A model generated the notes under the pieces. That model did no database searches and was not told the origin of the DNA. It was given only the letters and a program-made list of their open reading frames with translations. This document shows positions 4,701-51,579 of a stretch of 64,000 nucleotides of DNA, piece by piece. The translations under genes and the position numbers were made by a program. The DNA comes from Candidatus Curtissbacteria bacterium. Its GTDB lineage: Bacteria > Patescibacteriota > Microgenomatia > Curtissbacterales > GWA2-41-24. The stretch is taken from assembly GCA_024654445.1 (NCBI GenBank), contig JANLHP010000026.1:16733-80732 (forward strand), written 5' to 3'. Positions within the stretch are counted from its first letter, which is position 1, and every line of letters begins with the position of its first letter.

Positions 4701-6359
4701 TACGCGCTTATGGCGCTTTTTGGCAAAATGATTTATTTCGTAGGGAATCTTTTTAATCAGTTTATAAACCCCCTTGTTTCAAGAGAAGAAGGTGCAAGCA
4801 GAGACAGTAAAAAGGTATTTTATAAACTTTTTCTTGGATCGACCCTTGCAGGATTAGCAGCCTACATAGGTGTTGGAGTCTTAGGATTTATTACGGCGCC
4901 ACTTTTACTAGGAGAAAAAGCGCACGCAATAACTCATCTTCTGCCAGCTTATGGCATTGGAATGCTTGCTTTCTCTATTTCAACAAGTATCGTCACTTTC
5001 TATCAAATAAGAAAAAACTACATATTCGCTTACACCAGCATACTTTTGGCCTTTATCCAAATTGCCGGAATATATCTATTCCACGATTCGCTGGAACAGA
5101 TGGTTTCGGTGATGGCATTTATTGGCGGGCTCAACCTTGGAGCAATGCTGCTTTTACACTTTGCATATAAGCCATTTGCAGCAATTGTAAACAATCTTAA
5201 AAATCTCAAGAACACCCTTTCTCTCCAGAGAGAAGAATCCGAATCGGATGAGGGCAAACGCATTCTCATATTCAATTGGAGAGACACAAAACATGTTTGG
5301 GCCGGTGGAGCCGAAGTTTACGTACACGAATTATCAAAAAAAATGATCGAAAAAGGCTATCACGTCACCGTATTTTGCAGTAATGACCGCAAGTCGACTG
5401 CCAACGAATTTGTTGATGGAGTTGAAATCATTAGGCGAGGAGGCCACTATACTCTGTACATCTGGGCCTTTTTCTATTACATCACTAAACTTCGTGGAAA
5501 ATACGATCTTATCATCGACTCAGAAAACGGTATCCCATTCTTCACCCCTCTCTACGTAAGAAAGCCTCTAATCGGTCTCATTCACCATGTTCATCTAAAA
5601 GAAGTTTTCGACAGACATCTTCCATGGCCCTTGGCCAAACTGGCTCACTTTTTAGAATCAAAGGTTATGCCCATTGTTTACAGAAACACACAGATAGTTA
5701 CAGTCTCCAATTCTTCTAAAGAAGAGATAGAAAAACTTGGTTTAGGCAAAAAAATATCAATTGTAGTGATACATCCGGGCGTTGATCTTACCAAATTTAG
5801 AACGATGCAAAAAACCAAAGATCCTTCCATTGTTTACCTCGGAAGACTAAAGCCATACAAGTCTGTGGATAGGTTAATTACTGCTTTCTCCAAAATTTTA
5901 AAAGAGATACCCAATGCGACGCTCACGATTGCTGGCGACGGTGAAAGCAGGAAAGAACTTGAAATCCTGGCCAAGAGTCTTCGAATAGAAAAAGTCGTTA
6001 AATTTGTCGGCAAAGTTTCAGAACAAGCAAAAGTAGAACTTCTTGGAAAAGCTTGGATAGCTGCTCAACCCTCAAAAAGCGAAGGGTGGGGAATCACGGT
6101 AATCGAAGCAAATGCATGCGGAACACCTGTTATCGCATCCGATATTCCTGGGCTTCGAGACTCCGTTAAAAATCCCCACACCGGTTTATTGGTCACCTGG
6201 GACAATCAAGAAAAATGGGCGGAGGCTATGACTAAAGTTATTAAAGACGAACGCCTTAGAAAGGACTTATCAGAGCAATCGCTCGAATGGTCTAAAAACT
6301 TTAACTGGGAGAAAAATGCCGAACAATTAATAAAAGTTGCAAAGTTAAAAAATGAATAA
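1713..6359 (+). CDS. 1548-aa multidomain glycan synthase: Dpm1/GtrB-like GT2, TM linker, processive-type GT2 (DxD, TED, QxxRW), TM bundle, MOP/Wzx-like flippase domain, GT4
   Basis: aa1-230 VVPTYNE...IDDNSKDGT...IDADLQYPPE (polyprenol-P-sugar synthase signature). aa~340-600 YDAEDRPEP, VTEDADLG, QRSRWIKG (QxxRW). aa~740-1180 multi-TM region with Wzx/PST-like N-term (GNVLNFAYNAYLARTVSTEDFG...). aa~1190-1548 GT4 (EGWGITVIEANACGTPVIASDIPGLRDSV). Single uninterrupted ORF. Confidence 0.8.
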   Translation: MISIVVPTYNEKSNIKKLLSRIEKAIRSHPEDVDKYEIVVIDDNSKDGTWEILQREKSSKIKVFRKEGKQGKAYSLVEGFKKSSGNILVMIDADLQYPPEAIPQMLKLLDHSDIVVANRETYEHSRVRKTLSRIYKYTFGKILFGLSCDVQSGLKAFKREVYHATTPNPKSPWSFDLEFLHKSKNAGFTIKGYDIVFDNRKTDDSKIGVLRVGTELAINALVLRTKNTHPLTIPPKHANTMHGAGVGFKSRKYVTHSTLPHYNSALQGFVLWQKLFILTAFVALVLGLYLSLHLTALIIIGTLSAIYFLDVLFSLFLIVKSLHFPPELTTTSQEINSLKNKDLPIYSILCPLYKEANILPQFLDAIANIDWPKEKLDVLLLLEEDDQETVEAVKKMDLPSYIRTVVVPDSQPKTKPKACNYGLSLAKGEYLVIYDAEDRPEPFQLKKAFISFKKNPKNIICLQAKLNYYNPHQNLLTRLFTAEYSLWFDVILPGLQSIKTTIPLGGTSNHFKTPLLKELHGWDPFNVTEDADLGARLFKHGYKTAIIDSVTLEEANSRPKNWLRQRSRWIKGYFQTYLVHMRNPIAFVKEHKFHALIFQLIIGARISFMLINPFLWALTILYFVMRARVGAAIEALYPAPIFYIAVISLVFGNFMYIYNYMIGSAKRGHYAIIKYVFLIPVYWLMASVASFIALYQLIVKPHYWEKTVHGFHLEKENDEKLKQQKPVTEQIQAEKKEISKRLKFRELIKSGTFSGGLLVSGAIVGNVLNFAYNAYLARTVSTEDFGLISLIGSFLFLTSIPLNALARTVCHKSAFYLGKHQIALKGFWAHTRKRAILVSLIVTTLWIALTPLLAKFFHSPSYLPFILFAPVWIIGAASAVDGGFLSGNLKFKVNSLILVTDPLVKLILTFALITLGYPHLVYAAIPLAVFAYFLIGWFFASSIKEERPNIISHEATLKFPRGFFVTSILMGFTTIAFLTFDIILAKHFLAPVLAGQYALMALFGKMIYFVGNLFNQFINPLVSREEGASRDSKKVFYKLFLGSTLAGLAAYIGVGVLGFITAPLLLGEKAHAITHLLPAYGIGMLAFSISTSIVTFYQIRKNYIFAYTSILLAFIQIAGIYLFHDSLEQMVSVMAFIGGLNLGAMLLLHFAYKPFAAIVNNLKNLKNTLSLQREESESDEGKRILIFNWRDTKHVWAGGAEVYVHELSKKMIEKGYHVTVFCSNDRKSTANEFVDGVEIIRRGGHYTLYIWAFFYYITKLRGKYDLIIDSENGIPFFTPLYVRKPLIGLIHHVHLKEVFDRHLPWPLAKLAHFLESKVMPIVYRNTQIVTVSNSSKEEIEKLGLGKKISIVVIHPGVDLTKFRTMQKTKDPSIVYLGRLKPYKSVDRLITAFSKILKEIPNATLTIAGDGESRKELEILAKSLRIEKVVKFVGKVSEQAKVELLGKAWIAAQPSKSEGWGITVIEANACGTPVIASDIPGLRDSVKNPHTGLLVTWDNQEKWAEAMTKVIKDERLRKDLSEQSLEWSKNFNWEKNAEQLIKVAKLKNE

Positions 6360-7962
6360 AACAAATTTGAATATTGTTATTTTTGATTTAGACGATATTA
6401 AAAACCCCCTTCTTGGAGGAGGTCAAGCATGGGCTACTTTTGAAGTCGGAAGACGGTTAGCACAAAACGGTCACAAAGTTACTGTAATCTCTTCAAAATA
6501 CCCAAATTACAAAGACAGAACTCAAGAAGGCATTGACTATAAACATATAGGCATCAATACCAAATTTATAAAGTTAAATAACCTTTTATACCTTTTTGCT
6601 GCACCCCTTTATGCTATGAAGACCAAGGCGGACATAATCGTCGAGTGTTTTACTGCACCAGTATCAACACTTTTTACACCTCTTTTTACCAGAACCCCTG
6701 TTGTCGCTTTGCCCAGTATGTTCAACGCCCATGAATTTACCAAAAAATACCACTTACCTTTTCATCTGGTAGAGAGACTAGGAGCCAGATTCTACAAGTA
6801 TCTCTTGCCATATTCAGAAATTGACAGCTCTAAAATGAAAAAACTTAATCCAGGCATCAACTTTAAAATTGTCCCCCAGGGAGTTGCTAAAGAATACTTT
6901 GCGATCAAACAAAGAAAACCGGAACACATCCTTTTCTTAAGTAGATTAGATATTGAGCAAAAAGGTGTCGACCTTTTGCTGATGGCCTACGCTAAAGTTA
7001 GTTCAAAAATAAAATACCCACTTGTTATAGCTGGCCACGGCCCTGACGAGAAAAAAATTAGAGCCTTAATTAAAAAACTTGGCTTACAAAATAAAGTAAA
7101 AATGGTAGGCGCAGCTTACGGCAAAAAGAAATTCGATTTAATGGCCAAGGCACTCTTCGTAGCTTTCCCATCAAGACATGATGAAATGTGTCTCTGGTCC
7201 CTCGAGGCTCTAGCCGGAGGGTTGCCCCTCGTTGGTTTTAATCTACCGGAATCTAAATGGATGACTAAAGATATATCCCTGAAATCTAAAAGATTCAATG
7301 TGGACGAATACGCGTCCACATTACTCGAAGCGACTGATCCTGGCGTAATTGATCAGATGAGGACAAACGCAAGAACTTTTGCAAGAAAATTTAGCTGGGA
7401 AAAAGTTACAGCAGAATATGAATCGTTTTTTTATCAAATTTTAGAAAACGAGGGAACAGTAAAAGTACCAACACTTATCTCATACGAAAGACATATTCCG
7501 AAGATTTCGGATGAGGGCTTTCTTAGTTTTGCAGAAAGTAAAAAACATATACCTTTTAACATCAAACGCTTCTATTACATCACAGATGTCCAAAGGGGAA
7601 AAATAAGAGGAATGCACGCGCACAGAAAAAACCGTCAATTCGCGTTCTGTATTCAAGGAAAGGTAAAAATGACTCTCGACGACGGGTCAAGAAGAGAAGA
7701 AGTTATTTTGAACAAATCGAACCAGGGGCTTTATCTGGACAAAATGGTCTGGCACGAGATGACGGAATTTGAAAAAGGAACAACACTTTTAGTTATTGCA
7801 TCAGAATATTTTGAAAAAAAAGATTACATCAGAAACTATCAAGAGTTTAAACAGCTGGTTGAAAAGAAACATTTCAACCTCGGCATGGATGTTAGAGAAT
7901 TTGCGTCTTACCTTCTAAAATTACCGCTTGCTGCAAATCCAATCCCTTGGAGGATCAGATAA
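6352..7962 (+). CDS. GT4 glycosyltransferase fused to C-terminal FdtA/WxcM-like cupin domain (dTDP-4-keto-6-deoxyhexose 3,4-ketoisomerase-like)
   Basis: GT4 N-term and C-term motifs (LLGGGQAWATFEVGRRLAQNGHKV; FVAFPSRHDEMCLWSLEALAGGLPLVG). C-terminal ~150 aa: FNIKRFYYITDVQRGKIRGMHAHRKNRQFAFCIQGKVKMTLDDG...LYLDKMVWHEMTEF...LLVIASEYFEKKDYIRNYQEF, matching the FdtA/WxcM pattern. Overlaps upstream gene by 8 nt. Confidence 0.7.
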   Translation: MNKTNLNIVIFDLDDIKNPLLGGGQAWATFEVGRRLAQNGHKVTVISSKYPNYKDRTQEGIDYKHIGINTKFIKLNNLLYLFAAPLYAMKTKADIIVECFTAPVSTLFTPLFTRTPVVALPSMFNAHEFTKKYHLPFHLVERLGARFYKYLLPYSEIDSSKMKKLNPGINFKIVPQGVAKEYFAIKQRKPEHILFLSRLDIEQKGVDLLLMAYAKVSSKIKYPLVIAGHGPDEKKIRALIKKLGLQNKVKMVGAAYGKKKFDLMAKALFVAFPSRHDEMCLWSLEALAGGLPLVGFNLPESKWMTKDISLKSKRFNVDEYASTLLEATDPGVIDQMRTNARTFARKFSWEKVTAEYESFFYQILENEGTVKVPTLISYERHIPKISDEGFLSFAESKKHIPFNIKRFYYITDVQRGKIRGMHAHRKNRQFAFCIQGKVKMTLDDGSRREEVILNKSNQGLYLDKMVWHEMTEFEKGTTLLVIASEYFEKKDYIRNYQEFKQLVEKKHFNLGMDVREFASYLLKLPLAANPIPWRIR

Positions 7963-9059
7963 TGATACACATGACTACTTTCCAGAAAGAATACATCAGT
8001 CTTGAACCTATATTAATGAGTGCGGCCCGGAACACTCTTAAAAGCGGCCGCTACATATTAGGTAAAAATGTTGAAAAGTTTGAAAAGGACTTCGCCAAGT
8101 TCATAGGAACAAAATATTGCGTCGGCGTTGCAAATGGTTTGGAAGCATTACAGATATCTTTGATGGCGCAAGGAATAGGCAAAGAAGACGAAGTTATAAC
8201 AGTTTCAAATACCGCCGTAGCTACTGTCCTCGCGATAACTAACGTTGGCGCGACTCCAGTACTTATCGATATAGATGAGTATTACCACATGGACGTGGAT
8301 CTTTTAGAGAAAACCATCACACGAAAGACGAAAGCCATAATTCCAGTTCATTTATTTGGTCAATTAGCAGACATTGAAACAATCATAAAAATCGCAAAAA
8401 AACACAATTTAAAAGTTGTCGAAGATGCCTGTCAAGCTCACGGTGCCTCTTACAAAAACAAAAAGGCGGGTTCGTTTGGAGATGTTGCAGCTTTCAGTTT
8501 TTATCCAACTAAAAACCTCGGGGCTTACGGAGACGCGGGAGCAATAACAACGAATTCTAAAAAAATATACGAAAAATGCAAAATGATTCGAAATTACGGC
8601 CAAAAAAACAGATACGAGCATAAAATTTTGGGCCTTAATAGCAGACTTGACGAACTTCAAGCAGCATTTCTTATAGAGAAGCTCAAAAAATTAAATGCTT
8701 TGAATAAAAGAAGGACGCAAGTTGCCAAGCTCTATTTTAATCAACTTAAAAATATAAAAGGAGTGACACTCCCGGCAATCAGACAAGATTCTTTCCATTG
8801 TTTTCATCAATTTGTGATAGAAGCTCAAGACCGCAAAAATCTTATCGACTTTCTAAAAAGTAGAGGCGTGGAAACCTTAATACATTATCCAATTCCGGTA
8901 CATAAACAAAAATCATATAAGAATTACAACGGAATAAATCTTCCAAAAACTGAAAAAGCCGTAAAGAAAATTTTGTCTTTACCAATTAGTCCCTTTATGG
9001 CTGACAAAGAAGTCATAAAAGTATGCACTGAAATCAAAAACTTTTACAGATCAAAATGA
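7962..9059 (+). CDS. DegT/DnrJ/EryC1/StrS-family PLP-dependent nucleotide-sugar aminotransferase (FdtB-like)
   Basis: FSFYPTKNLGAYGDAGAITTN and ...NSRLDELQAAFL. GGAGG 8 nt upstream of ATG at 7962, which overlaps the upstream TAA (TAATG). The ORF-track start at 7947 is a TTG. Confidence 0.8.
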   Translation: MIHMTTFQKEYISLEPILMSAARNTLKSGRYILGKNVEKFEKDFAKFIGTKYCVGVANGLEALQISLMAQGIGKEDEVITVSNTAVATVLAITNVGATPVLIDIDEYYHMDVDLLEKTITRKTKAIIPVHLFGQLADIETIIKIAKKHNLKVVEDACQAHGASYKNKKAGSFGDVAAFSFYPTKNLGAYGDAGAITTNSKKIYEKCKMIRNYGQKNRYEHKILGLNSRLDELQAAFLIEKLKKLNALNKRRTQVAKLYFNQLKNIKGVTLPAIRQDSFHCFHQFVIEAQDRKNLIDFLKSRGVETLIHYPIPVHKQKSYKNYNGINLPKTEKAVKKILSLPISPFMADKEVIKVCTEIKNFYRSK

Positions 9060-9985
9060 AAAATATTAAAAGGACAGTAACTATTGGTATACCTGCTCAT
9101 AATGAAGAGAACAATATTGGGCTCTTGCTCGAGTCGATCTTAAGACAAAGACAAGGAAGCTATAAGCTCGAAAAAATTATTGTTGTGTGTGATGGCTGTC
9201 GCGACAAAACGGCAAAAATTGTGCGCCAATTTTCAAAATCAAATAAAGCGATCCTGCTCGTGAACGATGGAAAAAGATTAGGCAAAGGAGAAAGAATAAA
9301 CCAACTTTTCCAAATTACAAATTCTGACATTTTTATTAATTTTGACGCCGATATTACCTTGCCTGACACAGAGACCATAGCCAAGATGGTTAAGGGACTA
9401 TCCGATCCCAAAGTTGGGATTGTCAACGTAAAAAATACACCACTGGCACCCACCACATTGACAGAAAAATTAGCTAACGTTTATGAATGTTTTTGGTATG
9501 AAGTTACCAGAAATATCAATGACGGTAATAATGTTCACAATAGTACAGGAACTGCGTATGCGATTAGAAAAGAACTTTTTAAGAAGGTAACTTTGGAGCA
9601 TTGGGCAGTTGCGGAAGATCACTACTTATATTTTGAATGCGTCAAAAATGGGTTCACATTTAAATTTATTAAAAGTACAGAGGTCTTCTATAGACTTCCG
9701 AATAACCTCTCCGATTACATAAAACAGCAATCAAGATGGACCCTATCAAAGAAAAAGTTGGAAGATAATCTTGAGGATTGGACAAGCAAACACTACAGCA
9801 TCCCCAGAAACACGAAATATAAAGCTTATATGTACATGTTCTTAAAGCAGCCGATAATGATGCCTCTTGCAACTGTAATCCAATTGCTTATGAGGATTTA
9901 TAAATTTAGATATGTTAATTCTAACAATCCCGCTTGGGAGCCTATAAAGTCCTCGAAGAGAATGAACCTTACCACACTAAGATGA
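9056..9985 (+). CDS. GT2 glycosyltransferase (tandem paralog 1)
   Basis: N-term VTIGIPAHNEENNIGLLLESIL, DxD FDADI, C-term QQSRW-like motif. ATGA overlap with upstream gene. Confidence 0.75.
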   Translation: MKNIKRTVTIGIPAHNEENNIGLLLESILRQRQGSYKLEKIIVVCDGCRDKTAKIVRQFSKSNKAILLVNDGKRLGKGERINQLFQITNSDIFINFDADITLPDTETIAKMVKGLSDPKVGIVNVKNTPLAPTTLTEKLANVYECFWYEVTRNINDGNNVHNSTGTAYAIRKELFKKVTLEHWAVAEDHYLYFECVKNGFTFKFIKSTEVFYRLPNNLSDYIKQQSRWTLSKKKLEDNLEDWTSKHYSIPRNTKYKAYMYMFLKQPIMMPLATVIQLLMRIYKFRYVNSNNPAWEPIKSSKRMNLTTLR

Positions 9986-10881
9986 AACAATTAAAGAATA
10001 TTTCCATAGGTATATCAGCTTATAACGAAGGCAAGAATATTAAAAAATTGCTCGATGAGATCTTAAATCAAGAAAAGAATAGGTGGCGTCTTAGCGAGAT
10101 TCTTATCTATTGTGACGGATGTTCTGACAATACCATAAATCAGGCGCAAACCGTAAAAAACAGCCTGATCAAAATTATAGACGGTAAAAAAAGAATGGGT
10201 AAAACTTACAGATTAAAACAAATGTTCGAACAATTTTCAGGCGAAATTTTAATCATGTTCGATGGAGACATAGAACTTGGCGACAAAAACGTTGTTACGA
10301 ATTTAATTAAGCCATTTCGAAACAAAAACGTAATGCTTGTCGGCGGAAACTCGAAACCGTTTACACCCAGAACATTTTTCGAAAGATCTGTTTACTCAAC
10401 CTTTTCCGTCTTTTACGACTCAAGGCTAAAGATAAACGGCGGCAATAACATATTTGGTTGCACCGGCTCTGTCTTAGCAACTCGCGGCAATTTCGCAAAA
10501 TCATTAAACCTTCCAGATTTAATTAATGAAGACGCCTACATTTATCTAAAATGTCTCTCCAGAGGATTCCAATTTAAGTACGTCGACAAAGCAATTGTCT
10601 ATTATAAATTGCCGACAAATTTAAAAGATTATCTCAGACAACTTTTCAGGTCAGACCCCAGAGCCGTCACAGAAGAACTAGAAACCTATTTTGGGCAGCT
10701 TGTAGAAAGTGAATTTAATCGTCCTCCCAAATTCTATATAAGGGCAGTCGCCAAAGCACTTTTGAAAAATCCAACAGGAGCAAGCTTCATAGCAATAGTA
10801 AACGTCCTTTGCAAACCGTTTATTAAAAAAATATCGAAAAATTATAAACTGACATGGTTTACGGCAATCTCAACCCATTAA
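9982..10881 (+). CDS. GT2 glycosyltransferase (tandem paralog 2)
   Basis: ISIGISAYNEGKNIKKLLDEILNQ, FDGDI. ATG at 9982 forms an ATGA overlap with the upstream stop. The ORF-track start at 9934 lies inside the upstream gene. Confidence 0.75.
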   Translation: MKQLKNISIGISAYNEGKNIKKLLDEILNQEKNRWRLSEILIYCDGCSDNTINQAQTVKNSLIKIIDGKKRMGKTYRLKQMFEQFSGEILIMFDGDIELGDKNVVTNLIKPFRNKNVMLVGGNSKPFTPRTFFERSVYSTFSVFYDSRLKINGGNNIFGCTGSVLATRGNFAKSLNLPDLINEDAYIYLKCLSRGFQFKYVDKAIVYYKLPTNLKDYLRQLFRSDPRAVTEELETYFGQLVESEFNRPPKFYIRAVAKALLKNPTGASFIAIVNVLCKPFIKKISKNYKLTWFTAISTH

Positions 10882-10883
10882 AA

Positions 10884-12713
10884 ATGAAAATCCAAAATCT
10901 TTCGACTCAAAATATGATAAAAGGCCAAATTGGCAGCCTACTTAACAGGTGGCTCTTCCGCGGCAGCAAAAATGTTAAAAGAGTAACGATAAAAGTAGAG
11001 GGCGGAAGAAAAGTATTTATTAAACAACACACATTTAAATTCAAAGATATGGATTACTACTACTTGGTAAACGAGGCAAATGTAATTAAAACTTTAAACA
11101 AAGCAAAACATACTATAAAAGACAGAGTACATTTTCCAAAGTTTGTGGACTTTGTGGAAGAAGAAAACAAGGTCACGCTTAAAACGGAATACGAGGGAGG
11201 CAGAAAGCTAAGCGAGCTTACCTCCAAGCAAAGATTAGAAATACTGGAAGAATGCCTTCATTCAATCTGGACGACTTCTGCAAAGTTAAGAGACAAAAAA
11301 CTAAGTTATGTTGCTAAAAGAACAAATAACTCGTTTTTTGCCTTCCTTCCTTATTATATTGTGAGAGCTTTTTCAAAAGATTTAAAAAACTACTCGACTT
11401 ACTTTGGGTTAATATTCAAGTTTTACAAATACTATTTAGCCAGCTACTTTATTAACAATATCCCAACTCTAACACATAGAGACCTTGATCCTGATAACAT
11501 AAAAATTTCAAGAAACGGGGAAATATCAATTTACGATTGGGAGAATGCTGTAATGAGCGATAAACTTTTCGACCTTGCGTCGATTTGTGAAATTTACTCA
11601 AATGAAATTAAAAACGATCATCTTTCAAGGATGCTCCGAAACACACTCGAGACTAAATCTGAGATTGACAGACTTTTGGCTCTTTCCATTTTTAGCTCGA
11701 CCCAAAAACTGGCACTTTACCCTAAAAGGTCCAAGTCTTATAAAAACGCAAAGATTAATTTGGCGAATCTAGAAACTATTAAAAACAATTTAACGAGAGA
11801 CAAAAGAACGTTATTTGAAATCGTTAATTCTCTAACCCTTAACATTCTAAGCTTTACGTACCAAAAGATATCGCCCGAAAAAATCAAAAGCAGCAAAAAA
11901 ACCGTTTTATGCTATCACTCGATAAGTAATTCGTCTTGGAGATATTCAATGAGGAAAACAGATTTTGCAAGACAAATAGAATTTCTTAGAAAGAACTATA
12001 ATTTGGTGTCTCTCCCAACTCTGCTTGATAAAAGAACAAAAAGGGGTATCGCGATAACTTTCGATGACGGATACGCTGACGTTTATGAAAATGCCCTTCC
12101 GGTTCTCAAGGCTTATAAAGTTCCAGCTACAATTTTCGTCCTTGGTGATAGAGAGCACCCAAATAGAAAGGAACTTGATAATAACGAAAAACTTATGACA
12201 ATCTCGCAAATAAAAGAACTTCACGCCAAGGGGTGGGAAGTAGGCTTTCATACAAAAACACACTCAAAACTAGGCGATTTATCAGACCACGAGCTAAAAG
12301 CAGAGATTATTGATGGGAAAAGAGAACTCGAAAATAAACTTGGCTTTACCATGAAATATTTCGCGTACCCATTCGGAATTTATTCAAGAGAAATCATAAA
12401 CGCTGTCAAATCAGCCAGGTTTGAAGCTGCCTTTACAGTCGATGGGTCAGAAATAAAACATGGAAACAATCTCCTTATAAGTAGGGTGCCGACAGAGGGT
12501 GATCTTAGTGTCAACCAATTTGCAGCACTCATCTCGCCCATCGGGCTTATAATTAACCAGATTTTCATGTCAACTCTTAAGACAAAAGCCAAAACAACCA
12601 AGAAAATTTCGTGTATAATTTCCAGCGATCGCTGGAAATTACATCAGGCGAGCGAAGCGAGAGCTGATATAATAACTGACTTGAAAACACAATTTAAAAA
12701 AGAAAAAAATTGA
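10884..12713 (+). CDS. fusion protein: N-terminal protein-kinase-like/aminoglycoside-phosphotransferase-fold domain + C-terminal NodB-type polysaccharide deacetylase (CE4)
   Basis: HRDLDPDNIKISRNGEISIYDWENA (HxDxxxxN...DxE kinase-like catalytic/Mg motifs). C-term GIAITFDDGYADVYENALPVLKAYKVPATIFVLGD...GWEVGFHTKTH (CE4 motifs). ATG at 10884 follows the upstream TAA by 2 nt. Confidence 0.6.
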   Translation: MKIQNLSTQNMIKGQIGSLLNRWLFRGSKNVKRVTIKVEGGRKVFIKQHTFKFKDMDYYYLVNEANVIKTLNKAKHTIKDRVHFPKFVDFVEEENKVTLKTEYEGGRKLSELTSKQRLEILEECLHSIWTTSAKLRDKKLSYVAKRTNNSFFAFLPYYIVRAFSKDLKNYSTYFGLIFKFYKYYLASYFINNIPTLTHRDLDPDNIKISRNGEISIYDWENAVMSDKLFDLASICEIYSNEIKNDHLSRMLRNTLETKSEIDRLLALSIFSSTQKLALYPKRSKSYKNAKINLANLETIKNNLTRDKRTLFEIVNSLTLNILSFTYQKISPEKIKSSKKTVLCYHSISNSSWRYSMRKTDFARQIEFLRKNYNLVSLPTLLDKRTKRGIAITFDDGYADVYENALPVLKAYKVPATIFVLGDREHPNRKELDNNEKLMTISQIKELHAKGWEVGFHTKTHSKLGDLSDHELKAEIIDGKRELENKLGFTMKYFAYPFGIYSREIINAVKSARFEAAFTVDGSEIKHGNNLLISRVPTEGDLSVNQFAALISPIGLIINQIFMSTLKTKAKTTKKISCIISSDRWKLHQASEARADIITDLKTQFKKEKN

Positions 12714-12722
12714 GGTTGATAT

Positions 12723-14006
12723 ATGAACGCTAAAGGGTTAAAGCAATACAAAATAGGCATAGTAGGGACGGGCTTCGTCGCTCGAGGCCTCATGTTCTCT
12801 CTTAAATATCATCCAGAGTTGGAACTTGGTGGAGTACTTACAAGACGATCCATATCCCGGCTTGATGTTCCCGCCGCAAAAAAACTCATTACTCACGACA
12901 TTAACAAGTTGATCAAAAACTGCGACCTCATTGTCGAATGTAGCGGAGACGCTGTTCATGGAACAGATGTTGCAGAAGCAGTTTTAAAAGCAGGACTTCC
13001 AGTTGTCACCATGAACCCGGAATTGCAAATCACAACGGGCTCGATTCTTTGCCAAATGGGTACATTTATAGAAGCAGAAGGCGACCAACCTGGAACGATT
13101 GCTGCTCTTGATAATGAAGTCAGGAGCATGGGTTTCAAGCCGATCGTTTACGGGAATATTAAAAGATTTCTCAACCTAAGTCCAACAGAGGAAGAGATGG
13201 AATACTGGTCCAAAAGACAAGGAATTAGTATGGATCAGGTTACGGCTTTCACAGACGGAAGTAAGGTACAAATTGAACAGGCACTTGTCGCAAACGGTCT
13301 TGGAGCAACAATTGCAAATAGAGGACTCCTTGGAATTCCTTGTAAAGATTTAGAAGATGGCGCCCAAAGACTTGGAGAAGTCGCCGACGAAATCGGCAAA
13401 CCTATTAGCGATTATGTTCTTTCCCCCACATCACCCGCCGGAGTTTTCATTGTCGCCAAGCACGATCGCGAACAGCAACCATACCTTGAATATTTAAAAC
13501 TTGGCCCTGGGCCCAACTACGTCTTATTAAAACCATACCACCTTGTTCATCTGGAAATACTAAAGACCTTAACCAATGTATTAAAAGGCGACAGATCCTA
13601 CAAATTTAATAATGGTACAAATCCAACGGCGCAAGTTGTCGCAATTACCAAAAGAAAAATAGAAGCGGGGGAAACAGTCGGAAGGGGCCTAGGAAGTTTT
13701 GACATTCGCGGAGAAGCGGTAAAGATTGAAAACTATCCTGATTGTGTTCCAATCGGATTGATGCAAGACGTTAAATTTGTAAAAACGGTAGACGAAGGAC
13801 AGATTGTAAAATTCTCGGACGTAGAGCTTCCAAAGACAAGAGCGCTGGATCTGTGGAAGCTGATACTTGAGAATCAAAAAAATAAATCAGAAACTAAGAA
13901 AAAAATCTCAAGAATAAACGTTAGTCCCCGATCAAATGGAAAGAGAACTCCGAAAATTAACTTCTCCGTTACAAATTTACGAATCCAAAACAAAAGAAAA
14001 AAATGA
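12723..14006 (+). CDS. NAD(P)-binding oxidoreductase with C-terminal SAF domain (COG4091-like 'predicted homoserine dehydrogenase' architecture)
   Basis: N-term Rossmann GIVGTGFVARG. C-term VVAITKRKIEAGETV...IVKFSDVEL resembles a SAF/NeuB-C-terminal sugar-binding domain. GAGG RBS upstream. Confidence 0.45.
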   Translation: MNAKGLKQYKIGIVGTGFVARGLMFSLKYHPELELGGVLTRRSISRLDVPAAKKLITHDINKLIKNCDLIVECSGDAVHGTDVAEAVLKAGLPVVTMNPELQITTGSILCQMGTFIEAEGDQPGTIAALDNEVRSMGFKPIVYGNIKRFLNLSPTEEEMEYWSKRQGISMDQVTAFTDGSKVQIEQALVANGLGATIANRGLLGIPCKDLEDGAQRLGEVADEIGKPISDYVLSPTSPAGVFIVAKHDREQQPYLEYLKLGPGPNYVLLKPYHLVHLEILKTLTNVLKGDRSYKFNNGTNPTAQVVAITKRKIEAGETVGRGLGSFDIRGEAVKIENYPDCVPIGLMQDVKFVKTVDEGQIVKFSDVELPKTRALDLWKLILENQKNKSETKKKISRINVSPRSNGKRTPKINFSVTNLRIQNKRKK

Positions 14007-14935
14007 AACGAATTACATTGACTATCGGTATCCCTGCTTATAACGAACAAGAGAATATTTCCAGCCTCCTGGATTCGATTAGTGCCCAAAAACAGAAGTC
14101 TTACAAAGTTGAAAAAATTATAATTGTCGCCGACGGATGCACAGATTCAACTGAAGACATTATAAAAAAACGTATGAAATCAAATAAGCTAATTAATTTA
14201 ATGGTCGGAGCGAAAAGAGAAGGGAAAGCAAAAGCGTTAAATATAATTTATAAAAACAGCCAAAGCGACCTTCTTTTAACAATAGACGCGGACCTTATCT
14301 TTGTAGGGAATAATTCAATCGAAGAAATGGTAAAAACGATCAAACGTAATCCTAAAACAAATTTAGTCGGCCCCCGACACGTACCGGTACGGCCTAAATC
14401 ATTAATGGGAAAATTCGCGTACGTTTCATATTTAAGTTTTGAAGACGCTTTTTTGAAATTAAACAACGGCAATAATTTTTACGCAATGATGGCAACTGGT
14501 CTTATTAGAAAAGACTTTTATAAAACGTTCACCTACCCAGAAGGCACAATATCGGATCAATGCTATCTTTACGTATCAGCAACAAGAAACAACAAATACG
14601 GGTTCAAGCTGTCAAAAAATGCCCACGTGATGTTCAGAACAGTCAGCACCTTTGAAGATTGGAGAATTCTTGGGGTAAGGTCTGTAATTATGGACAAAGA
14701 AAATGTTGCAGGCTATTTTGGTCGGGACATCTTAAGCGAATTCAGTATACCTAAAAAACTATTTTTTACGTCTCTTTTAAAGTGGCTCATAAAGAGCCCG
14801 ATTTATACGACAGGTTCAATATTGATGAACATCTATATTCGTAAGTTTCCAAAACGAGAACTTATGCCTAAAAACGGGATGTGGGAACTCGCAAAATCAT
14901 CCAAAAAGAATATCCGATTAACAAAAACAATATGA
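14003..14935 (+). CDS. GT2 glycosyltransferase (tandem paralog 3)
   Basis: LTIGIPAYNEQENISSLLDSISAQ, IDADL. ATGA overlap with upstream gene. Confidence 0.75.
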   Translation: MKRITLTIGIPAYNEQENISSLLDSISAQKQKSYKVEKIIIVADGCTDSTEDIIKKRMKSNKLINLMVGAKREGKAKALNIIYKNSQSDLLLTIDADLIFVGNNSIEEMVKTIKRNPKTNLVGPRHVPVRPKSLMGKFAYVSYLSFEDAFLKLNNGNNFYAMMATGLIRKDFYKTFTYPEGTISDQCYLYVSATRNNKYGFKLSKNAHVMFRTVSTFEDWRILGVRSVIMDKENVAGYFGRDILSEFSIPKKLFFTSLLKWLIKSPIYTTGSILMNIYIRKFPKRELMPKNGMWELAKSSKKNIRLTKTI

Positions 14936-18597: not shown

Positions 18598-20133
18598 ATG
18601 ACTTTTAAGAAAATTGCTGTTTTTTTGCTGGTTTTTATAGCTTCGGCGTCACTGCTGATTCTTGGTATCAAGGGTAAAAGTGGAGACCCAGTTTTTTATC
18701 AATCAGAAGTCCAAACAGATAAAAATATTGGAGGCCCATTTGAATCTTCCAGCAGCAATTCTAGGTTTGCACTTGTAGAATCAATCGCAAAAGAAAGAAC
18801 CTTCTTCTTCAACGAGGAGAGAGCCTATTTTGCGGCGCCCGACCTAGTTTCTTATAACGGTACTTTCTTTTCTATTTTTACACCTGGAGTCTCTTTTCTT
18901 GGAGTACCTCTGTACCTGCTGGGAGCAAAAATCGGCTTTGCCCAGCTTGCGACATATTCTCTCAACATAATAGCAGGACTCTTGAATATATTTTTAGTCT
19001 ACAAGCTATCAAGAAAATTAGGCGCCGGGGCTTACAGCTCATTATTCTCAGGGACAGCATTTGTCTTTGCGACCCACGCCCTTGTATACGCCTTTACCTT
19101 AAGCCAGCACCACATTAGTACTGCCTTAATCTTATTTGCAATTCTAAACGCTATAGGTAAAAGAACTTTAGTAAAAGACATAACACTTGGTGCTGCTTTT
19201 GGATTAGGAATATTGATGGATATTCCTAATGTTTTCATGATGGCGCCAGTCATTCTTTATGCCTTCTCAAGAAGTATCAAGGTAGAAGACTTAGGAGAGA
19301 AAACAAAACTAGTAGTTAAACTAACAGTTTTGAGTTTCCTAATAGGCGTGATTCCTTTTCTGGCAACTTTTAGCTGGTATAACTACAAACTTACTGGCTC
19401 ATACCTCAAAATAGGCCAACTTATAGGCAGATCCGACTTTCCTGTAAAGGAAGAAAACAAAGCAACGCTAGTAATAGATCAAGAATCAAGCGAGCTGAGG
19501 TTATTAGAAGTGCCGTTTAACCCAAGAAGAATGTTGGAAGGCTTACCTCTTCTTATTGCAAGCAATGAAAGAGGAATACTCTTTTATAGCCCAATCACGG
19601 CATTTGGAATAGCCGGCCTTATCCTGGCAGTCAAATCCAAAAATCAACAACAGAAAACAGCAAGTACACTTGCAAGTTCCGTCATTTTTTCAAACCTTCT
19701 AATTTACGGTATGTTTGGTGATCCTTGGGGTGGTTGGTCTTTTGGCCCTAGGTATCTGGTTCCAACAGCAGCAATTCTTTGTGCTGGAATTGGCCCAATA
19801 ATTGAAAGATTTAAAAGAAAAATTATTTTTCTTATACTTTTGGCGCTCATTACTACCTACAGCATCTTTGTTAATACCCTCGGAGCGCTAACTTCTACAC
19901 AAGTACCCCCTAAGGTTGAAGCACAAGCCTTGCAAAATCCAATACCTCATACATATATTTACAATTGGCATCTCACTGAAAATAAATTCTCAGGCTCCTT
20001 AATCTACAATCTCTATTTTTCAAATATAATCCCAGCTCAAATTTATTTACTTCTGTTCTCCAGCCTATCCCTATTTTTTATGGTTTTAATATTTTCTGCA
20101 GCATATAAAGAAAAACCTATCATAGACAAATGA
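18598..20133 (+). CDS. polytopic membrane protein, GT-C-fold glycosyltransferase-like
   Basis: >10 predicted TM segments with an extracytoplasmic loop after TM1. Sits among polyprenol-P-sugar synthases. Confidence 0.45.
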   Translation: MTFKKIAVFLLVFIASASLLILGIKGKSGDPVFYQSEVQTDKNIGGPFESSSSNSRFALVESIAKERTFFFNEERAYFAAPDLVSYNGTFFSIFTPGVSFLGVPLYLLGAKIGFAQLATYSLNIIAGLLNIFLVYKLSRKLGAGAYSSLFSGTAFVFATHALVYAFTLSQHHISTALILFAILNAIGKRTLVKDITLGAAFGLGILMDIPNVFMMAPVILYAFSRSIKVEDLGEKTKLVVKLTVLSFLIGVIPFLATFSWYNYKLTGSYLKIGQLIGRSDFPVKEENKATLVIDQESSELRLLEVPFNPRRMLEGLPLLIASNERGILFYSPITAFGIAGLILAVKSKNQQQKTASTLASSVIFSNLLIYGMFGDPWGGWSFGPRYLVPTAAILCAGIGPIIERFKRKIIFLILLALITTYSIFVNTLGALTSTQVPPKVEAQALQNPIPHTYIYNWHLTENKFSGSLIYNLYFSNIIPAQIYLLLFSSLSLFFMVLIFSAAYKEKPIIDK

Positions 20134-21740
20134 CAATTAACATACAACTCAACAAACAAAGATTTCAAAAGGTTAAATCATTTTTAATCGAGAAAGACCT
20201 ACTTTTTATAACTATTTTTCTGACGGTAGCTGCCATCATTAGTTTTTTTATCTTTTACACAAGCGGCTTGGCGCTTGCGTACAACGACGCAAGGTCGCAT
20301 TTGGATATAGGCCGTAGAGTCGTAGAAGGCTTAAAACCTGGTATCGCTCAACTGGGATCAGTTTGGTTGCCCCTTCCTCACGTTCTAATGGTTCCGACTA
20401 TTTGGAACGATTTTATGTGGCACACCGGCCTTTCAGGCGCACTCATTTCGATGTTGTCTTTTGTGGGAACGGGAGTTCTTATTTATCTTATTTTAAAAAA
20501 TTTAAATGTAGGACCTTTAGGGAGAATTATCGCTGTTTTAATTTTTGCACTCAACATCAACATTTTGTATTTGCAATCAACTGCGATGACCGAACTCCTC
20601 TTGATATTCACAATGACAGCCGCAGTCTACGATCTCATGCAATGGGCAAAAACAGAAAGAATCGTATACGTAATAAGGTCATCTTTTTGGATAATGCTCT
20701 CAACTCTTGTTCGATATGACGGTTGGTTTCTCCTCATCTTCAGCGCTTTTATTATTGCAATTTTGCTTATAAAAAGTAGGGGATATAAAGTCACAGAAGG
20801 AACATTGATACTTTTTCTGACTCTGGGTGGATTCGGTATATTCCTTTGGGTTGTTTGGAATCTTCTTATTTTTGGAGATCCCTTATATTTCGCTTTCGGT
20901 CCTTTTTCCGCTAGAGCCCAGCAATCACAGCTTGAAGAAGCGGGAGTCCTTTCCACCAAAGGAAACATACTCTTCTCATTAAAAATGTACCTTTACGCGA
21001 TGGTTTACAACACCGGCGCATTCCAGGCAATTACAGGATTTGTAGGAGCCATCGTTTTATGGATGGATAAAAACACAAAGACGAGTGTACGAATAGCAAG
21101 CAGTGCATTAATGGCACCATTTCTTTTTAACGTCCTTGCTTTGTTCATGGGACATTCAGTCCTCTTCATTCAGGGTCTTTCGGGAAATACTTGGTTTAAC
21201 GTCAGGTATGGCGCAATGATGATTCCGACCGTGGCCGTGTTCACCGGGTATTTAATTTCCAAAGTCAAAGGTTTGAGGTATACTATCGCTGGACTATTTA
21301 TTGCTGTAACGTTTTTTGCTTTCGCAAATGTGGATGCGGTAACCATAGATGATGCGAGAGTTGGAAGCAGTCAGAAAAACGTCTCCGAAGTTAGTAGTTG
21401 GCTAAAACAAAATACCGAAGACGAGCCCGGCTTCATCTTGATATCGGCAGCTTCGCACGATGCCATAATTTTTTCCTCAGGTCTTCCAATGAAGAAATAT
21501 ATACATGAGGGAACCGGAGCTTACTGGGAAAGCGCAACCACATCTCCCGACAGGTGGGCAAAATGGATAGTGATGAGGACAAACGACACTAACGATTTGG
21601 CATTTAAATTGACACAAGAATCTGGACAGCTCGAAAAATATAACAAAGTCCAAAGTTTCCCGTTTGCAGACATTTACGAACTCAAGCGAGAGTATTGGCA
21701 ACAAGTAAATACAACACCAACATTAGGCAAACAAAAATGA
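20130..21740 (+). CDS. polytopic membrane protein, GT-C-like, with C-terminal soluble domain
   Basis: Multi-TM N-terminal ~400 aa followed by a hydrophilic ~130-aa tail. ATGA overlap with upstream gene. Confidence 0.4.
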   Translation: MTINIQLNKQRFQKVKSFLIEKDLLFITIFLTVAAIISFFIFYTSGLALAYNDARSHLDIGRRVVEGLKPGIAQLGSVWLPLPHVLMVPTIWNDFMWHTGLSGALISMLSFVGTGVLIYLILKNLNVGPLGRIIAVLIFALNINILYLQSTAMTELLLIFTMTAAVYDLMQWAKTERIVYVIRSSFWIMLSTLVRYDGWFLLIFSAFIIAILLIKSRGYKVTEGTLILFLTLGGFGIFLWVVWNLLIFGDPLYFAFGPFSARAQQSQLEEAGVLSTKGNILFSLKMYLYAMVYNTGAFQAITGFVGAIVLWMDKNTKTSVRIASSALMAPFLFNVLALFMGHSVLFIQGLSGNTWFNVRYGAMMIPTVAVFTGYLISKVKGLRYTIAGLFIAVTFFAFANVDAVTIDDARVGSSQKNVSEVSSWLKQNTEDEPGFILISAASHDAIIFSSGLPMKKYIHEGTGAYWESATTSPDRWAKWIVMRTNDTNDLAFKLTQESGQLEKYNKVQSFPFADIYELKREYWQQVNTTPTLGKQK

Positions 21741-22732
21741 AAAAAATAATTTTAATTATTGTAGTTTTGTTATCAGCAATGTTTATATTTAAACTTGCCG
21801 ACAAAAAAAGCAGTTTACCAACTTCTCCTCAAGTAAATAAAAGAATCTGGGAGATAAAATCAATCGATACGATGAAGTATTCCAGAGATCTTTCCGCAGA
21901 AAAGCTTAACGACCCGACATTCAACAACCACATCGATGCCCACATAAAAATTATCAAAGATACCGGAGCAACACATGTTGCAATTGCCACCCCCTACGAC
22001 GATAGATTCAACTCGGTTCTAAGACGTTGGGTATCGGTTGCAAGAAAATACGACCTCAACATCTGGTTCCGTGGCAATTTTTCCGGATGGGAGGGGTGGT
22101 TTGGTGAAGGCAGGAATAGTATTACGAGAGATCAACACTTGAGTATGACCAGGTCTTTTATCAAAAACAATGCGGATTTATTTAAAGATGGTGACGTGTT
22201 TAGTCCTTGCCCCGAATGTGAAAATGGCGGTCCCGGTGACCCCAGGTTCCAAACGAATGTTGCCGACTACAGAAAATTCTTAATCGCAGAACGAAACGCC
22301 TCCCTCGAGGAGTTCAAGAGTATTGATAAAGACATTACTGTTCTAGATTCTATGAATTTTGATGTCGCAAAACTCATAATGGACAAAGAAACAGCACAAG
22401 CGATGGGCAACATCATAGTTATAGATCATTATGTAGAATCGCCCGAAAGGTTAGCGCGGGATATAGACGAACTTCATAAAACTACCGGTGCCAAAGTTTT
22501 CTTGGGTGAATTTGGAGCGCCTATTCCAGATATACACGGAAACTTAACAGAAGAAGAGCAGGCACAATGGATCGAGCAGGCACTAAACCTAATTAGGAAT
22601 AAACAGCATTTAATAGGCTTAAATTACTGGGTGGCGATTGGGGGATCAACCGCGATATACAACGAAGAATTAGCGCCAAAACCTGCAGCAGAGATATTAA
22701 AGAAATTTTTTAAGCTAGATAGTCTTAACTAG
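21737..22732 (+). CDS. secreted/anchored protein, putative TIM-barrel glycoside hydrolase (weak)
   Basis: N-terminal signal/TM MKKIILIIVVLLSAMFIF. FLGEFGAPIP is reminiscent of a GH-A nucleophile region, but no clear acid/base motif. ATG at 21737 forms an ATGA overlap. Confidence 0.3.
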   Translation: MKKIILIIVVLLSAMFIFKLADKKSSLPTSPQVNKRIWEIKSIDTMKYSRDLSAEKLNDPTFNNHIDAHIKIIKDTGATHVAIATPYDDRFNSVLRRWVSVARKYDLNIWFRGNFSGWEGWFGEGRNSITRDQHLSMTRSFIKNNADLFKDGDVFSPCPECENGGPGDPRFQTNVADYRKFLIAERNASLEEFKSIDKDITVLDSMNFDVAKLIMDKETAQAMGNIIVIDHYVESPERLARDIDELHKTTGAKVFLGEFGAPIPDIHGNLTEEEQAQWIEQALNLIRNKQHLIGLNYWVAIGGSTAIYNEELAPKPAAEILKKFFKLDSLN

Positions 22733-32624: not shown

Positions 32625-33554
32625 ATGAAGCTAAAACACGTAGTCTCCGCGACACAATTTGACACTGATACACTGCGTAAATTGTTTAATACCGCCTCAA
32701 AAATTAAAAACGGTAATTACCCAAAGAAAGCTCTTAATGGAAAAATTATGGCAGCAATTTTCTATGAACCCTCAACAAGAACGAGGCTTTCTTTTGAAGC
32801 CGCAATGCAAAGACTTGGTGGGCAAGTCATTTCTACTGAAAACGCGAGTCAATTTTCATCCGCGTCCAAAGGTGAAACCCTAGAGGATACTGTAAGAATA
32901 ATAAGTTCTTACGCGGACGTCATTGTTCTAAGGCATTTCTCACCGGGGGCTTCAGATATCGCGTCCAAATTTTCATCGGTCCCTGTTATTAACGCCGGGG
33001 ACGGGAACGGAGAACATCCAACGCAAGCATTGCTTGACCTTTTTACAATTTTTGGGAAATTTTCAAAAAATGGATCCTTGCCGCCAAAATTCACAGTTGC
33101 AATGGTAGGAGATTTAACAAATGGTAGAACGATACACTCCCTATCGTACTTGCTTTCGCTTTACCCAAAAGTAAAAATAATTTTTGTTTCGCCAAAAGCA
33201 CTCACAGCGCCAAATAGCTTAACGAGTCACTTAAGAGAGAAAAATATTGATTTCTTAGAAACTGAAGACTTTAAGTATGCCTTAAAAGTTGCTGACGTTG
33301 TTTATCAAACGCGGATACAAAAGGAAAGATTCAAAGGCAAAAAAGATTATAAGAAATATTTCGGCAGTTTTATTCTCGACAATAAAACGATTTCTCTTAT
33401 GAAAAGAAATGCGGCAATAATGCACCCCCTTCCTCGAGTGAATGAAATTAACCCTGAGATAGACGATGACAAGAGATCGATATACTTTGAACAAGCCCAA
33501 AATGGGCTTTATATTCGAATGGCTTTGCTTCTTTTTCTCTTTGACAAAGCCTAA
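32625..33554 (+). CDS. pyrB: aspartate carbamoyltransferase catalytic subunit
   Basis: STRTRLSFEAAMQRLGG...HPLPRVNEI... Confidence 0.8.
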   Translation: MKLKHVVSATQFDTDTLRKLFNTASKIKNGNYPKKALNGKIMAAIFYEPSTRTRLSFEAAMQRLGGQVISTENASQFSSASKGETLEDTVRIISSYADVIVLRHFSPGASDIASKFSSVPVINAGDGNGEHPTQALLDLFTIFGKFSKNGSLPPKFTVAMVGDLTNGRTIHSLSYLLSLYPKVKIIFVSPKALTAPNSLTSHLREKNIDFLETEDFKYALKVADVVYQTRIQKERFKGKKDYKKYFGSFILDNKTISLMKRNAAIMHPLPRVNEINPEIDDDKRSIYFEQAQNGLYIRMALLLFLFDKA

Positions 33555-51578: not shown

Positions 51579-51579
51579 A

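Follow-up and report, generated by a model that had tools for sequence, protein, structure and literature searches.

A kinase fused to a CE4 de-N-acetylase in a conserved surface-glycan locus of Candidatus Curtissbacteria: a candidate bifunctional glycan-tailoring enzyme

The stretch of DNA analysed here (the window) comprises 64,000 nucleotides from a Candidatus Curtissbacteria bacterium (contig JANLHP010000026.1). The gene in question, at positions 10884 to 12713 of the forward strand, encodes a single protein in which an APH/choline-kinase-type kinase domain is followed by a de-N-acetylase domain of family CE4. It lies within a single co-directional array of more than 45 kb (positions 1713-47196), made up almost entirely of genes for glycan assembly, and the reading frames of this array overlap or abut at the fusion gene. 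Both domain families are already known, as are kinase-containing bifunctional enzymes of glycan tailoring; what appears to be new is this pairing. Our search of the searchable literature found no description of an APH-type kinase paired with a CE4 enzyme of the PgaB/IcaB/PplD type, in agreement with the initial annotation, which knew of no such report. Databases name these proteins by the deacetylase half alone. The window protein, of which NCBI holds an identical copy, is labelled only “polysaccharide deacetylase family protein”, and UniProt A0A1F5HUT9 is listed as “NodB homology domain-containing protein”.

The fusion gene and its two domains

The sequence comes from a metagenome-assembled genome, and the integrity of the gene model deserves a word. 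The open reading frame (ORF) is open throughout from 10854 to 12713 and encodes 619 amino acids (aa); read from the methionine at 10884 it gives 609 aa plus the stop codon. All residues are numbered here from the latter methionine, and all coordinates are window positions (Table 1). The concern that two genes separated by an undetected frameshift had been read as one is answered by the absence of any stop codon or frame change between 10884 and 12710, and by 64 homologues in which a single chain contains both domains. Where translation starts is ambiguous: NCBI places the start codon at 10854, as against 10884, where most homologues align. The methionine at 10884 sits 2 nt past the TAA stop codon (10879-10881) of an upstream GT2 glycosyltransferase gene, which the NCBI model overlaps by 28 nt. 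One homologue, P0010, has an N-terminal extension (MVYGWINQIKLM) resembling that of the longer model.

Table 1. Positions in the window of the kinase-CE4 gene, its domains and motifs, and its conserved neighbours. A2 is an alignment of 19 sequences; AF2, AlphaFold2; pLDDT, predicted local distance difference test.
Feature	Position	Strand	Basis or remark
Whole kinase-CE4 ORF	10884..12713	+	NCBI model has 619 aa, from an ATG further upstream (10854)
APH/choline-kinase-type kinase domain, aa 1-335	10884..11888	+	Pfam APH, AF2, Foldseek; bilobal fold with C-terminal helical subdomain
K47, beta-3 ATP-binding lysine	11022..11024	+	strand 42-50 of the model; invariant in A2
E64, alpha-C partner of K47	11073-11075	+	helix 56-73 of the model; invariant in A2
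Catalytic loop HRDLDPDN (H198, D200, N205)	11475..11498	+	Brenner motif HxDxxxxN
DWE (D218, E220)	11535..11543	+	Mg-binding aspartate, equivalent to DFG
SDKLFDLA	11556-11579	+	APH-type motif after DWE
CE4/NodB-homology de-N-acetylase domain, aa 336-546	11889..12521	+	PgaB/IcaB/PplD subtype; PF01522, PDB search, Foldseek
CYH with H345, predicted catalytic-acid histidine	11910..11918	+	upstream of motif 1; aligns to IcaB ‘vlCYHrv’
TFDDGY: D394 predicted catalytic base, D395 predicted metal ligand	12057..12074	+	aligned to PplD TFDD
HTKTH: H456, H460 predicted metal ligands	12249..12263	+	
FAYP (Y495, P496)	12360-12371	+	
R534, probable counterpart of PplD R302 (positions the catalytic aspartate)	12483..12485	+	extrapolated from alignment
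Hydrophobic/amphipathic C-terminal helix, aa 547-565 (AALISPIGLIINQIFMSTL)	12522..12578	+	likely membrane-association element
Lys-rich helical tail, aa 566-609	12579..12710	+	confined to this protein, no conservation in the family; pLDDT < 50 at aa 575-584
DegT-type sugar aminotransferase and two GT2 genes	7947..10881	+	upstream operon partners
GT2 gene	9934-10881	+	conserved immediate upstream neighbour of the kinase
GT-C-like membrane protein (weak PMT_2), 536-aa and 345-aa proteins	18598..22732	+	conserved downstream partners

The N-terminal domain is a kinase of the APH/choline-kinase type, placed by fold and sequence together. The Pfam scan matched PF01636 (APH) to aa 194-241 of the window protein with 26.8-28.3 bits, above the gathering score of 23.2, the match spanning just profile positions 168-216 of 239. 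Among the relatives, the same profile is matched by all 19 aligned kinase domains, with a best expect value (E) of 2.6e-18. The AF2 model of the kinase domain alone has a pLDDT of 88.4. When the full-length and kinase-only models were compared with the PDB by Foldseek, both returned APH(4)-Ia, APH(2''), APH(3'), type II homoserine kinase and CcrZ at probability 1.00 and template-modelling (TM) scores of 0.55-0.64. The initial annotation had likened this domain both to APH-type phosphotransferases and to the Kdo/lipopolysaccharide kinases WaaP and KdkA. The first likeness is borne out by the Pfam score and by the fold matches, and the second was rejected. PF06293 (Kdo/WaaP) gave no match to the window protein at E ≤ 0.1 and matched one of the 19 relatives (E 0.045), and the top 50 Foldseek matches contain no Kdo, WaaP or RIO-type structure.

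The residues on which such a kinase depends are in place. K47, E64, H198, D200, N205 and D218 are all invariant in A2, and across 165 kinase domains of the family these six catalytic residues are kept in 89-99% of the sequences. The position of K47 is occupied by Lys in 147 domains and by Arg in 16, and that of E64 by Glu in 159; the His, Asp and Asn of the catalytic loop are kept in 162, 157 and 158, respectively, and D218 in 164, while D230 is either Asp or Glu in 163. A degenerate pseudokinase, lacking the ATP-binding lysine, had been raised as a possible flaw of the original proposal; with K47 and E64 both present and invariant in A2, the domain does not answer to that description. It is also strongly basic, with an isoelectric point (pI) of 9.7 against a family median of 9.5. 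The domain has in common with the APH enzymes the bilobal kinase fold with a helical C-terminal subdomain, the beta-3 Lys, the alpha-C Glu, the HxDxxxxN motif, the Mg-binding Asp and the downstream D-(L/I)-A motif. Besides its basic character, it differs from them in that its identity to the solved members is just 12-18%, and in that its gene is found among glycan-assembly genes, to which it is often fused, rather than in resistance or amino-acid pathways.

The C-terminal domain is a CE4 enzyme, as first proposed from its NodB-homology motifs. PF01522 (Polysacc_deac_1) matches aa 384-515 with an E of 2.1e-29, and the TFDDGY and HTKTH motifs stand where they had been described, as do HRDLDPDN and DWE in the kinase half. 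The top sequence match in the PDB is IcaB (4wcj); the top Foldseek matches of this half are PplD (6dq3), BC0361, BA0330, IcaB and PgaB, with PplD, IcaB and PgaB at probability 1.00. PplD, PgaB and IcaB also share with the window domain a variant motif order: the catalytic His precedes DD, and the Arg that positions the base has moved to a late place in the sequence, H105 of PplD being the precedent for the His (PMC8807736). The HxxxH metal ligands are likewise common to them all. The Asp and His residues required for catalysis (H345, D394, D395, H456 and H460) are all present, and together with Y495, P496 and R534 they show no variation in any of the 64 fusion proteins. With full residue sets in both halves, the two domains apparently are catalytically competent.

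It is worth noting where this CE4 domain departs from its nearest solved relatives. PplD, IcaB and PgaB are secreted or membrane-anchored outside the cell, PplD being extracytoplasmic (PMC8807736), whereas the window domain has no signal peptide and is joined to a kinase. The NCBIfam equivalog cut-offs were missed as well, with scores of 69.8 vs 321.9 for PgaB (TIGR03938) and 67.7 vs 248.35 for IcaB (TIGR03933). The CE4 domains of the fusions form a distinct group: they score 191-316 bits against their own hidden Markov model (HMM), as compared with at most 171 bits for 73 CE4 proteins that have no kinase.

The AF2 model of the full-length protein is confident, with a mean pLDDT of 86.9 and a predicted TM score of 0.79, and the linker between kinase and CE4 domain is continuous, helical and confidently predicted. 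The protein ends in a long helix (aa 552-608) that is not conserved in the relatives beyond about aa 575. The segment at aa 547-565 is the most hydrophobic 19-mer of the whole protein (Kyte-Doolittle mean 1.63). The family consensus at this place reads SPxGL...KxLxxKE, and the best 17-mer hydrophobicity score has a median of 1.36 over 61 kinase-first fusions. From this position the chain runs on into a membrane domain in a second paralogue of a related locus (L002) and in three longer relatives (about 1,100 aa). A hydrophobicity scan of the window protein revealed neither an N-terminal signal peptide nor a transmembrane segment, the sole hydrophobic element being the C-terminal one. Judged by its composition and conservation, this helix may well act as a membrane tether. 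Since kinases need cytoplasmic nucleotide, both catalytic domains would be expected to reside in the cytoplasm.

A recurrent fusion in a conserved glycan locus

The fusion is a genuine combination of a kinase-like domain with a CE4 domain, as Pfam, the AF2 and Foldseek structure check and the homologues all indicate, and it is not rare: 64 of the proteins retrieved, all already in the public databases, have both domains. Nineteen full-length homologues of the same architecture were found at 24-40% identity, and a search of 1.84 billion representative proteins with the kinase-domain profile gave 402 clusters at E ≤ 1e-30. Architectures were counted among 159 retrieved proteins with this kinase. 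The kinase stands alone in 79 of them and is followed by a CE4 domain in 58, and by a CE4 domain plus a further domain in another three. The reverse order, CE4 then kinase, was seen in three (one with an added N-terminal region that has precomputed GT2 Pfam hits), so the 64 divide into 61 kinase-first and 3 reversed proteins. There are also seven tandem kinase-kinase proteins and nine in which the kinase is fused to other domains only. The other combinations found in the scanned proteins were kinase-GT2, GT4-kinase, DegT-kinase-GT2 and kinase-CE4-GT-C.

Three stand-alone kinases of 328-358 aa (P0103, P0105 and P0114) show how the domain is used without its partner. Each is encoded in a slot between the conserved GT2 gene and another GT2 gene, the conserved GT2 being preceded by DegT wherever the contig reaches that far, and the kinase of P0114 is followed on its contig by the GT-C-like and ~540-aa genes. 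No CE4 gene was found on the stand-alone-kinase contigs whose DNA was scanned. The existence of CE4-less kinases, together with the other fusion partners, makes the kinase a core and modular member of the assembly line and the CE4 domain an accessory to it, and the two reactions therefore need not be obligatorily coupled. At the same time, the occurrence of both domain orders and of triple fusions with GT-C argues that the physical linkage, and hence proximity, of kinase, deacetylase and membrane transferase has been under selection. In a neighbour-joining tree of the 165 kinase domains the kinase-only and kinase-CE4 forms are interspersed, which suggests repeated gain or loss of the CE4 domain; this tree is unsupported and we do not rely on it.

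Several variants of the family may be mentioned here. Three proteins of about 1,100 aa (P0102, P0128 and P0139) consist of kinase-CE4 and an extra C-terminal region, for which the one scanned, P0102, gave a weak PMT_2 (GT-C) match. The second paralogue of L002, at 11532-14801 of that locus, is a kinase-CE4 fusion whose C-terminal part matches the GT-C-like protein of the window. The tandem kinases (P0124, P0137, P0148, P0175, P0176, P0187 and P0217) have the arginine of the HRD motif replaced by glycine in the second copy in 7/7 cases, with the catalytic residues retained. When genome contigs were scanned for the motif HRDLxPDNI, the kinases among the matches listed were three unrelated ones (L006-L008), from Planctomycetota, Polyangiaceae and Prosthecobacter.

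The surface-glycan locus to which the gene belongs is conserved and syntenic in Microgenomates/Patescibacteria. Ahead of the fusion the window encodes, in order, a giant GT2-GT2-GT4 protein, a GT4-FdtA fusion, the DegT aminotransferase and two GT2 enzymes. After it come a DRL-type oxidoreductase, a GT2, a GT1, a hexapeptide acetyltransferase, two further GT2 enzymes, the GT-C-like protein and two unknown proteins, followed by RmlABCD. Other metagenome loci share a backbone of the giant GT2-GT2-GT4, a GT4, (FdtA), DegT, a GT2, the kinase with or without CE4 and further GT2 genes, which continues with the GT-C-like protein, a protein of ~540 aa, one of ~330 aa and a sortase. The GT2 directly upstream of the fusion is the best-conserved GT2 of the locus and has 45-57% identity to the gene just before the kinase in L001, L002, L009 and L010. 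The GT-C-like gene adjoins the kinase-CE4 gene or is fused to it in L001, L002, L004 and L013. The window thus encodes RmlABCD, FdtA, DegT and the hexapeptide acetyltransferase, a set that (through RmlA/B, of the Rml enzymes) suggests a route to a dTDP-3-acetamido-3,6-dideoxyhexose.

Proposed function and competing explanations

We lean towards the view that the protein is a bifunctional, membrane-peripheral glycan-tailoring enzyme, working at the cytoplasmic face of the membrane in the cell-surface glycan assembly line of Microgenomates/Patescibacteria; its substrates, cytoplasmic location, reaction order and coupling are described here as we infer them. With a nucleoside triphosphate as donor, the APH/choline-kinase-type domain would transfer phosphate to the hydroxyl group of a sugar in a polyprenyl-linked glycan. 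Its most likely target would be the sugar that the adjacent conserved GT2 adds, which may be a DegT-derived amino sugar. The metal-dependent CE4 domain would strip the N-acetyl group from an acetamido sugar, either on this intermediate or on a neighbouring one. The hydrophobic helix at the C-terminus would keep the enzyme at the membrane, beside a GT-C-type transferase that acts after flipping. The expected product is a glycan with a free amine and a phosphate. The initial annotation had gone one step further and had both domains act on the same glycan. The bifunctional character is in line with the complete catalytic residues and the glycan-assembly context; the “same glycan” part was overstated, as the kinase is often found without CE4 or with another fusion partner, and we would call it no more than plausible.

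Precedents for such an enzyme can be found among the chain-terminating kinases of bacterial O-antigen synthesis. ORF6 of the Klebsiella pneumoniae O7 cluster combines methyltransferase, AmiN/APH-like kinase and GT2 modules, and phosphorylates a terminal rhamnose (PMC11231755). WbdD of E. coli O9a is a kinase-methyltransferase that acts on a polyprenol-linked glycan and associates with the membrane through its C-terminus (PMC3482155). By analogy, the window protein would resemble both in having a kinase-fold domain joined to a second tailoring activity or to glycosyltransferase modules and, in our proposal, in modifying, at the cytoplasmic membrane, a glycan carried on polyprenol; the O7 cluster also has rhamnose-pathway genes, as does the window. 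The differences are equally clear. The partner here is a CE4 deacetylase and no methyltransferase domain is present; the family lacks the conserved coiled-coil ruler of WbdD, the hydrophobic helix alone being conserved; and no Wzm/Wzt-type transporter was found beside the fusion gene, the window encoding a Wzx-type flippase and GT-C enzymes instead.

There are precedents for the CE4 half as well. The Caulobacter enzyme HfsH is a cytosolic CE4 protein thought to deacetylate lipid-linked holdfast precursors (PMC5362036), and the NCBIfam HfsH model gives a weak match to the window protein (E 2.6e-5; score 24 vs a cut-off of 400). The gene order DegT, GT2, CE4, GT-C mirrors arnB, arnC, (arnA), arnD, arnT of the Arn pathway. 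We retained this as an analogy of gene order alone and dropped any kinship to ArnD, because no sequence relatedness was detectable: even without filters, the CE4-domain HMM gave E. coli ArnD a score of only 4.4 bits. Neither HfsH nor ArnD is fused to a kinase.

Several observations weigh against the proposed bifunctional enzyme. The nearest kinase folds belong to small-molecule enzymes and not to polymer kinases, and WbdD is absent among the top sequence and fold matches listed. The nearest solved relatives of the CE4 domain, PplD, IcaB and PgaB, act outside the cytoplasm. The hexapeptide acetyltransferase is found near the fusion in the window and in L003 and is absent within ±8 kb of it in L001, L002, L004 and L005. 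Furthermore, in L009, in L010 and on the P0114 contig the same slot is filled by a kinase without CE4. This makes the two activities separable, and each may have its own target residue or its own stage.

The kinase might instead belong to a pathway of the Lic or Kennedy type. It would then phosphorylate free choline, ethanolamine or a similar compound, or the C1 of a sugar, and the product would be nucleotide-activated and transferred to the glycan, with the CE4 domain acting independently. All the close folds are indeed small-molecule kinases, LicA (4r77) is the top kinase match in a single-sequence PDB search (E 0.042), and PF01633 (Choline_kinase) matches 13 of the 19 relatives with a best E of 3.6e-7, although APH scores higher throughout. 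In L003 the CE4-kinase gene stands directly before genes for a CDP-alcohol phosphotransferase-like and a cytidylyltransferase-like protein (L003 9792-11109), and these two with the kinase represent three Kennedy/Lic-type enzyme families, in this locus only. Neither the 64-kb window nor any of the other loci yielded a homologue of either partner gene, and what is conserved around the kinase are GT2 and GT-C neighbours and GT2, GT4, DegT and GT-C fusion partners. We regard such a pathway as unlikely. Salvage or catabolism in a nutrient-poor symbiont, with the CE4 domain deacetylating scavenged chito-oligosaccharides or N-acetylglucosamine (GlcNAc) and the kinase phosphorylating the released amino sugar, strikes us as highly improbable. 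Sequential chemistry of the two domains is conceivable, APH-fold kinases acting on hexosamines and N-acetylhexosamines exist, and Patescibacteria have reduced biosynthesis. The gene is, however, part of the long co-directional array of glycosyltransferase and nucleotide-sugar genes, scans of the window found no adjacent glycoside hydrolase, sugar transporter or glucosamine 6-phosphate enzyme, and the protein carries a conserved membrane-association helix.

We give still less credence to a regulatory protein kinase, whose N-terminal domain would control glycan synthesis by phosphorylating a protein, be it the CE4 domain, a glycosyltransferase or a component of export. PF00069 (Pkinase) does produce weak matches in 13 of the 19 relatives, and many eukaryotic-type protein kinases are matched at the profile level. 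But all these matches are confined to some 30-50 residues around the catalytic loop, and the window protein itself scores 16.5 bits against a gathering score of 31.7. Over the whole domain the folds retrieved are APH, homoserine kinase II and CcrZ, with the helical C-terminal subdomain and the SDxxxDLA motif. A trivial explanation, that of a pseudokinase scaffold or of two separate genes merged through faulty assembly or a frameshift error, might appeal to the metagenomic origin of the sequence and to the restriction of the Pfam APH match in the window protein to the part around the catalytic loop. We consider its probability negligible: the catalytic residues are kept across the family, the 64 two-domain homologues are independent, the modelled linker is continuous, helical and confident, and the frame is unbroken. 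With residues intact, the fusion recurrent and the model consistent, both the pseudokinase and the erroneous join were ruled out.

A more ambitious version of the bifunctional enzyme can also be drawn, which we think rather unlikely though worth stating. Here the CE4 domain would unmask the amine of an acetamido sugar in the lipid-linked glycan, either a DegT-derived 3-amino-3,6-dideoxyhexose or the GlcNAc of a linkage unit, and the APH-like domain would then phosphorylate that residue or its neighbour. The solved APH relatives of the window kinase do recognise amino sugars. Such an obligatory two-step reaction would create a zwitterionic amine-plus-phosphate motif, which could serve as a chain-terminating signal or as an export or attachment signal for the GT-C-type transferase, a protein with which the enzyme is in some cases fused. 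If true, it would be a previously unknown modification of an envelope polymer, specific to Patescibacteria.

The wider interest of the protein lies in the envelope of Patescibacteria (the Candidate Phyla Radiation, CPR), which mediates attachment to hosts, yet whose biochemistry is largely unknown; the fusion offers an entry point into this chemistry. Should one polymer be the substrate of both domains, its glycan is expected to bear free amines as well as phosphate. The kinase family has been overlooked, its 402 clusters being unnamed in database annotation. Should the bifunctional tailoring function hold, APH-type kinases, best known from antibiotic resistance, would in this phylum also be modular units of glycan tailoring, as in Klebsiella O7.

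Other genes of the locus

The glycan array of the window contains at least 13 GT2 genes, several GT4 genes, four or five GT-C/PMT_2-type membrane proteins and RmlABCD, together with two UDP-glucose dehydrogenases, a GDP-mannose dehydratase and the Wzx-type flippase at 45730-47196. The stretch beyond it, at 49903-56603, adds further GT2 and GT4 genes, together with genes for a methyltransferase and a YfhO-type protein. The predicted pI values fall into two sharply separated sets, 5.2-7.0 for the soluble Rml enzymes vs 9.2-9.9 for all the glycosyltransferases, the kinase-CE4 protein and DegT.

Some of these genes are conserved to a striking degree. No gene in the entire glycan locus is better conserved than that of the 536-aa protein (20130-21740), which has no Pfam match and 61-69% identity to its counterparts in six other loci (L001-L005 and L009); the 345-aa protein after it (21695-22732), also with no Pfam match, has 47-54% identity in four loci. 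The giant GT2-GT2-GT4 gene (1713-6359) encodes a triple glycosyltransferase of 1,548 aa and is found in every related locus at 43-66% identity. Next to it is the GT4 fused to an FdtA-type 3,4-ketoisomerase (6352-7962); in other loci FdtA is a separate gene. The oxidoreductase gene that directly follows the fusion (12723-14006; PF21135, of the DRL (DXR-like)/homoserine-dehydrogenase type) has an 80%-identical copy in L003 and in no other locus. Lastly, a gene of the aspartate/ornithine carbamoyltransferase family (32625-33554) stands amid glycosyltransferase and GT-C genes, and might encode either an enzyme of ordinary metabolism or one that modifies a sugar.

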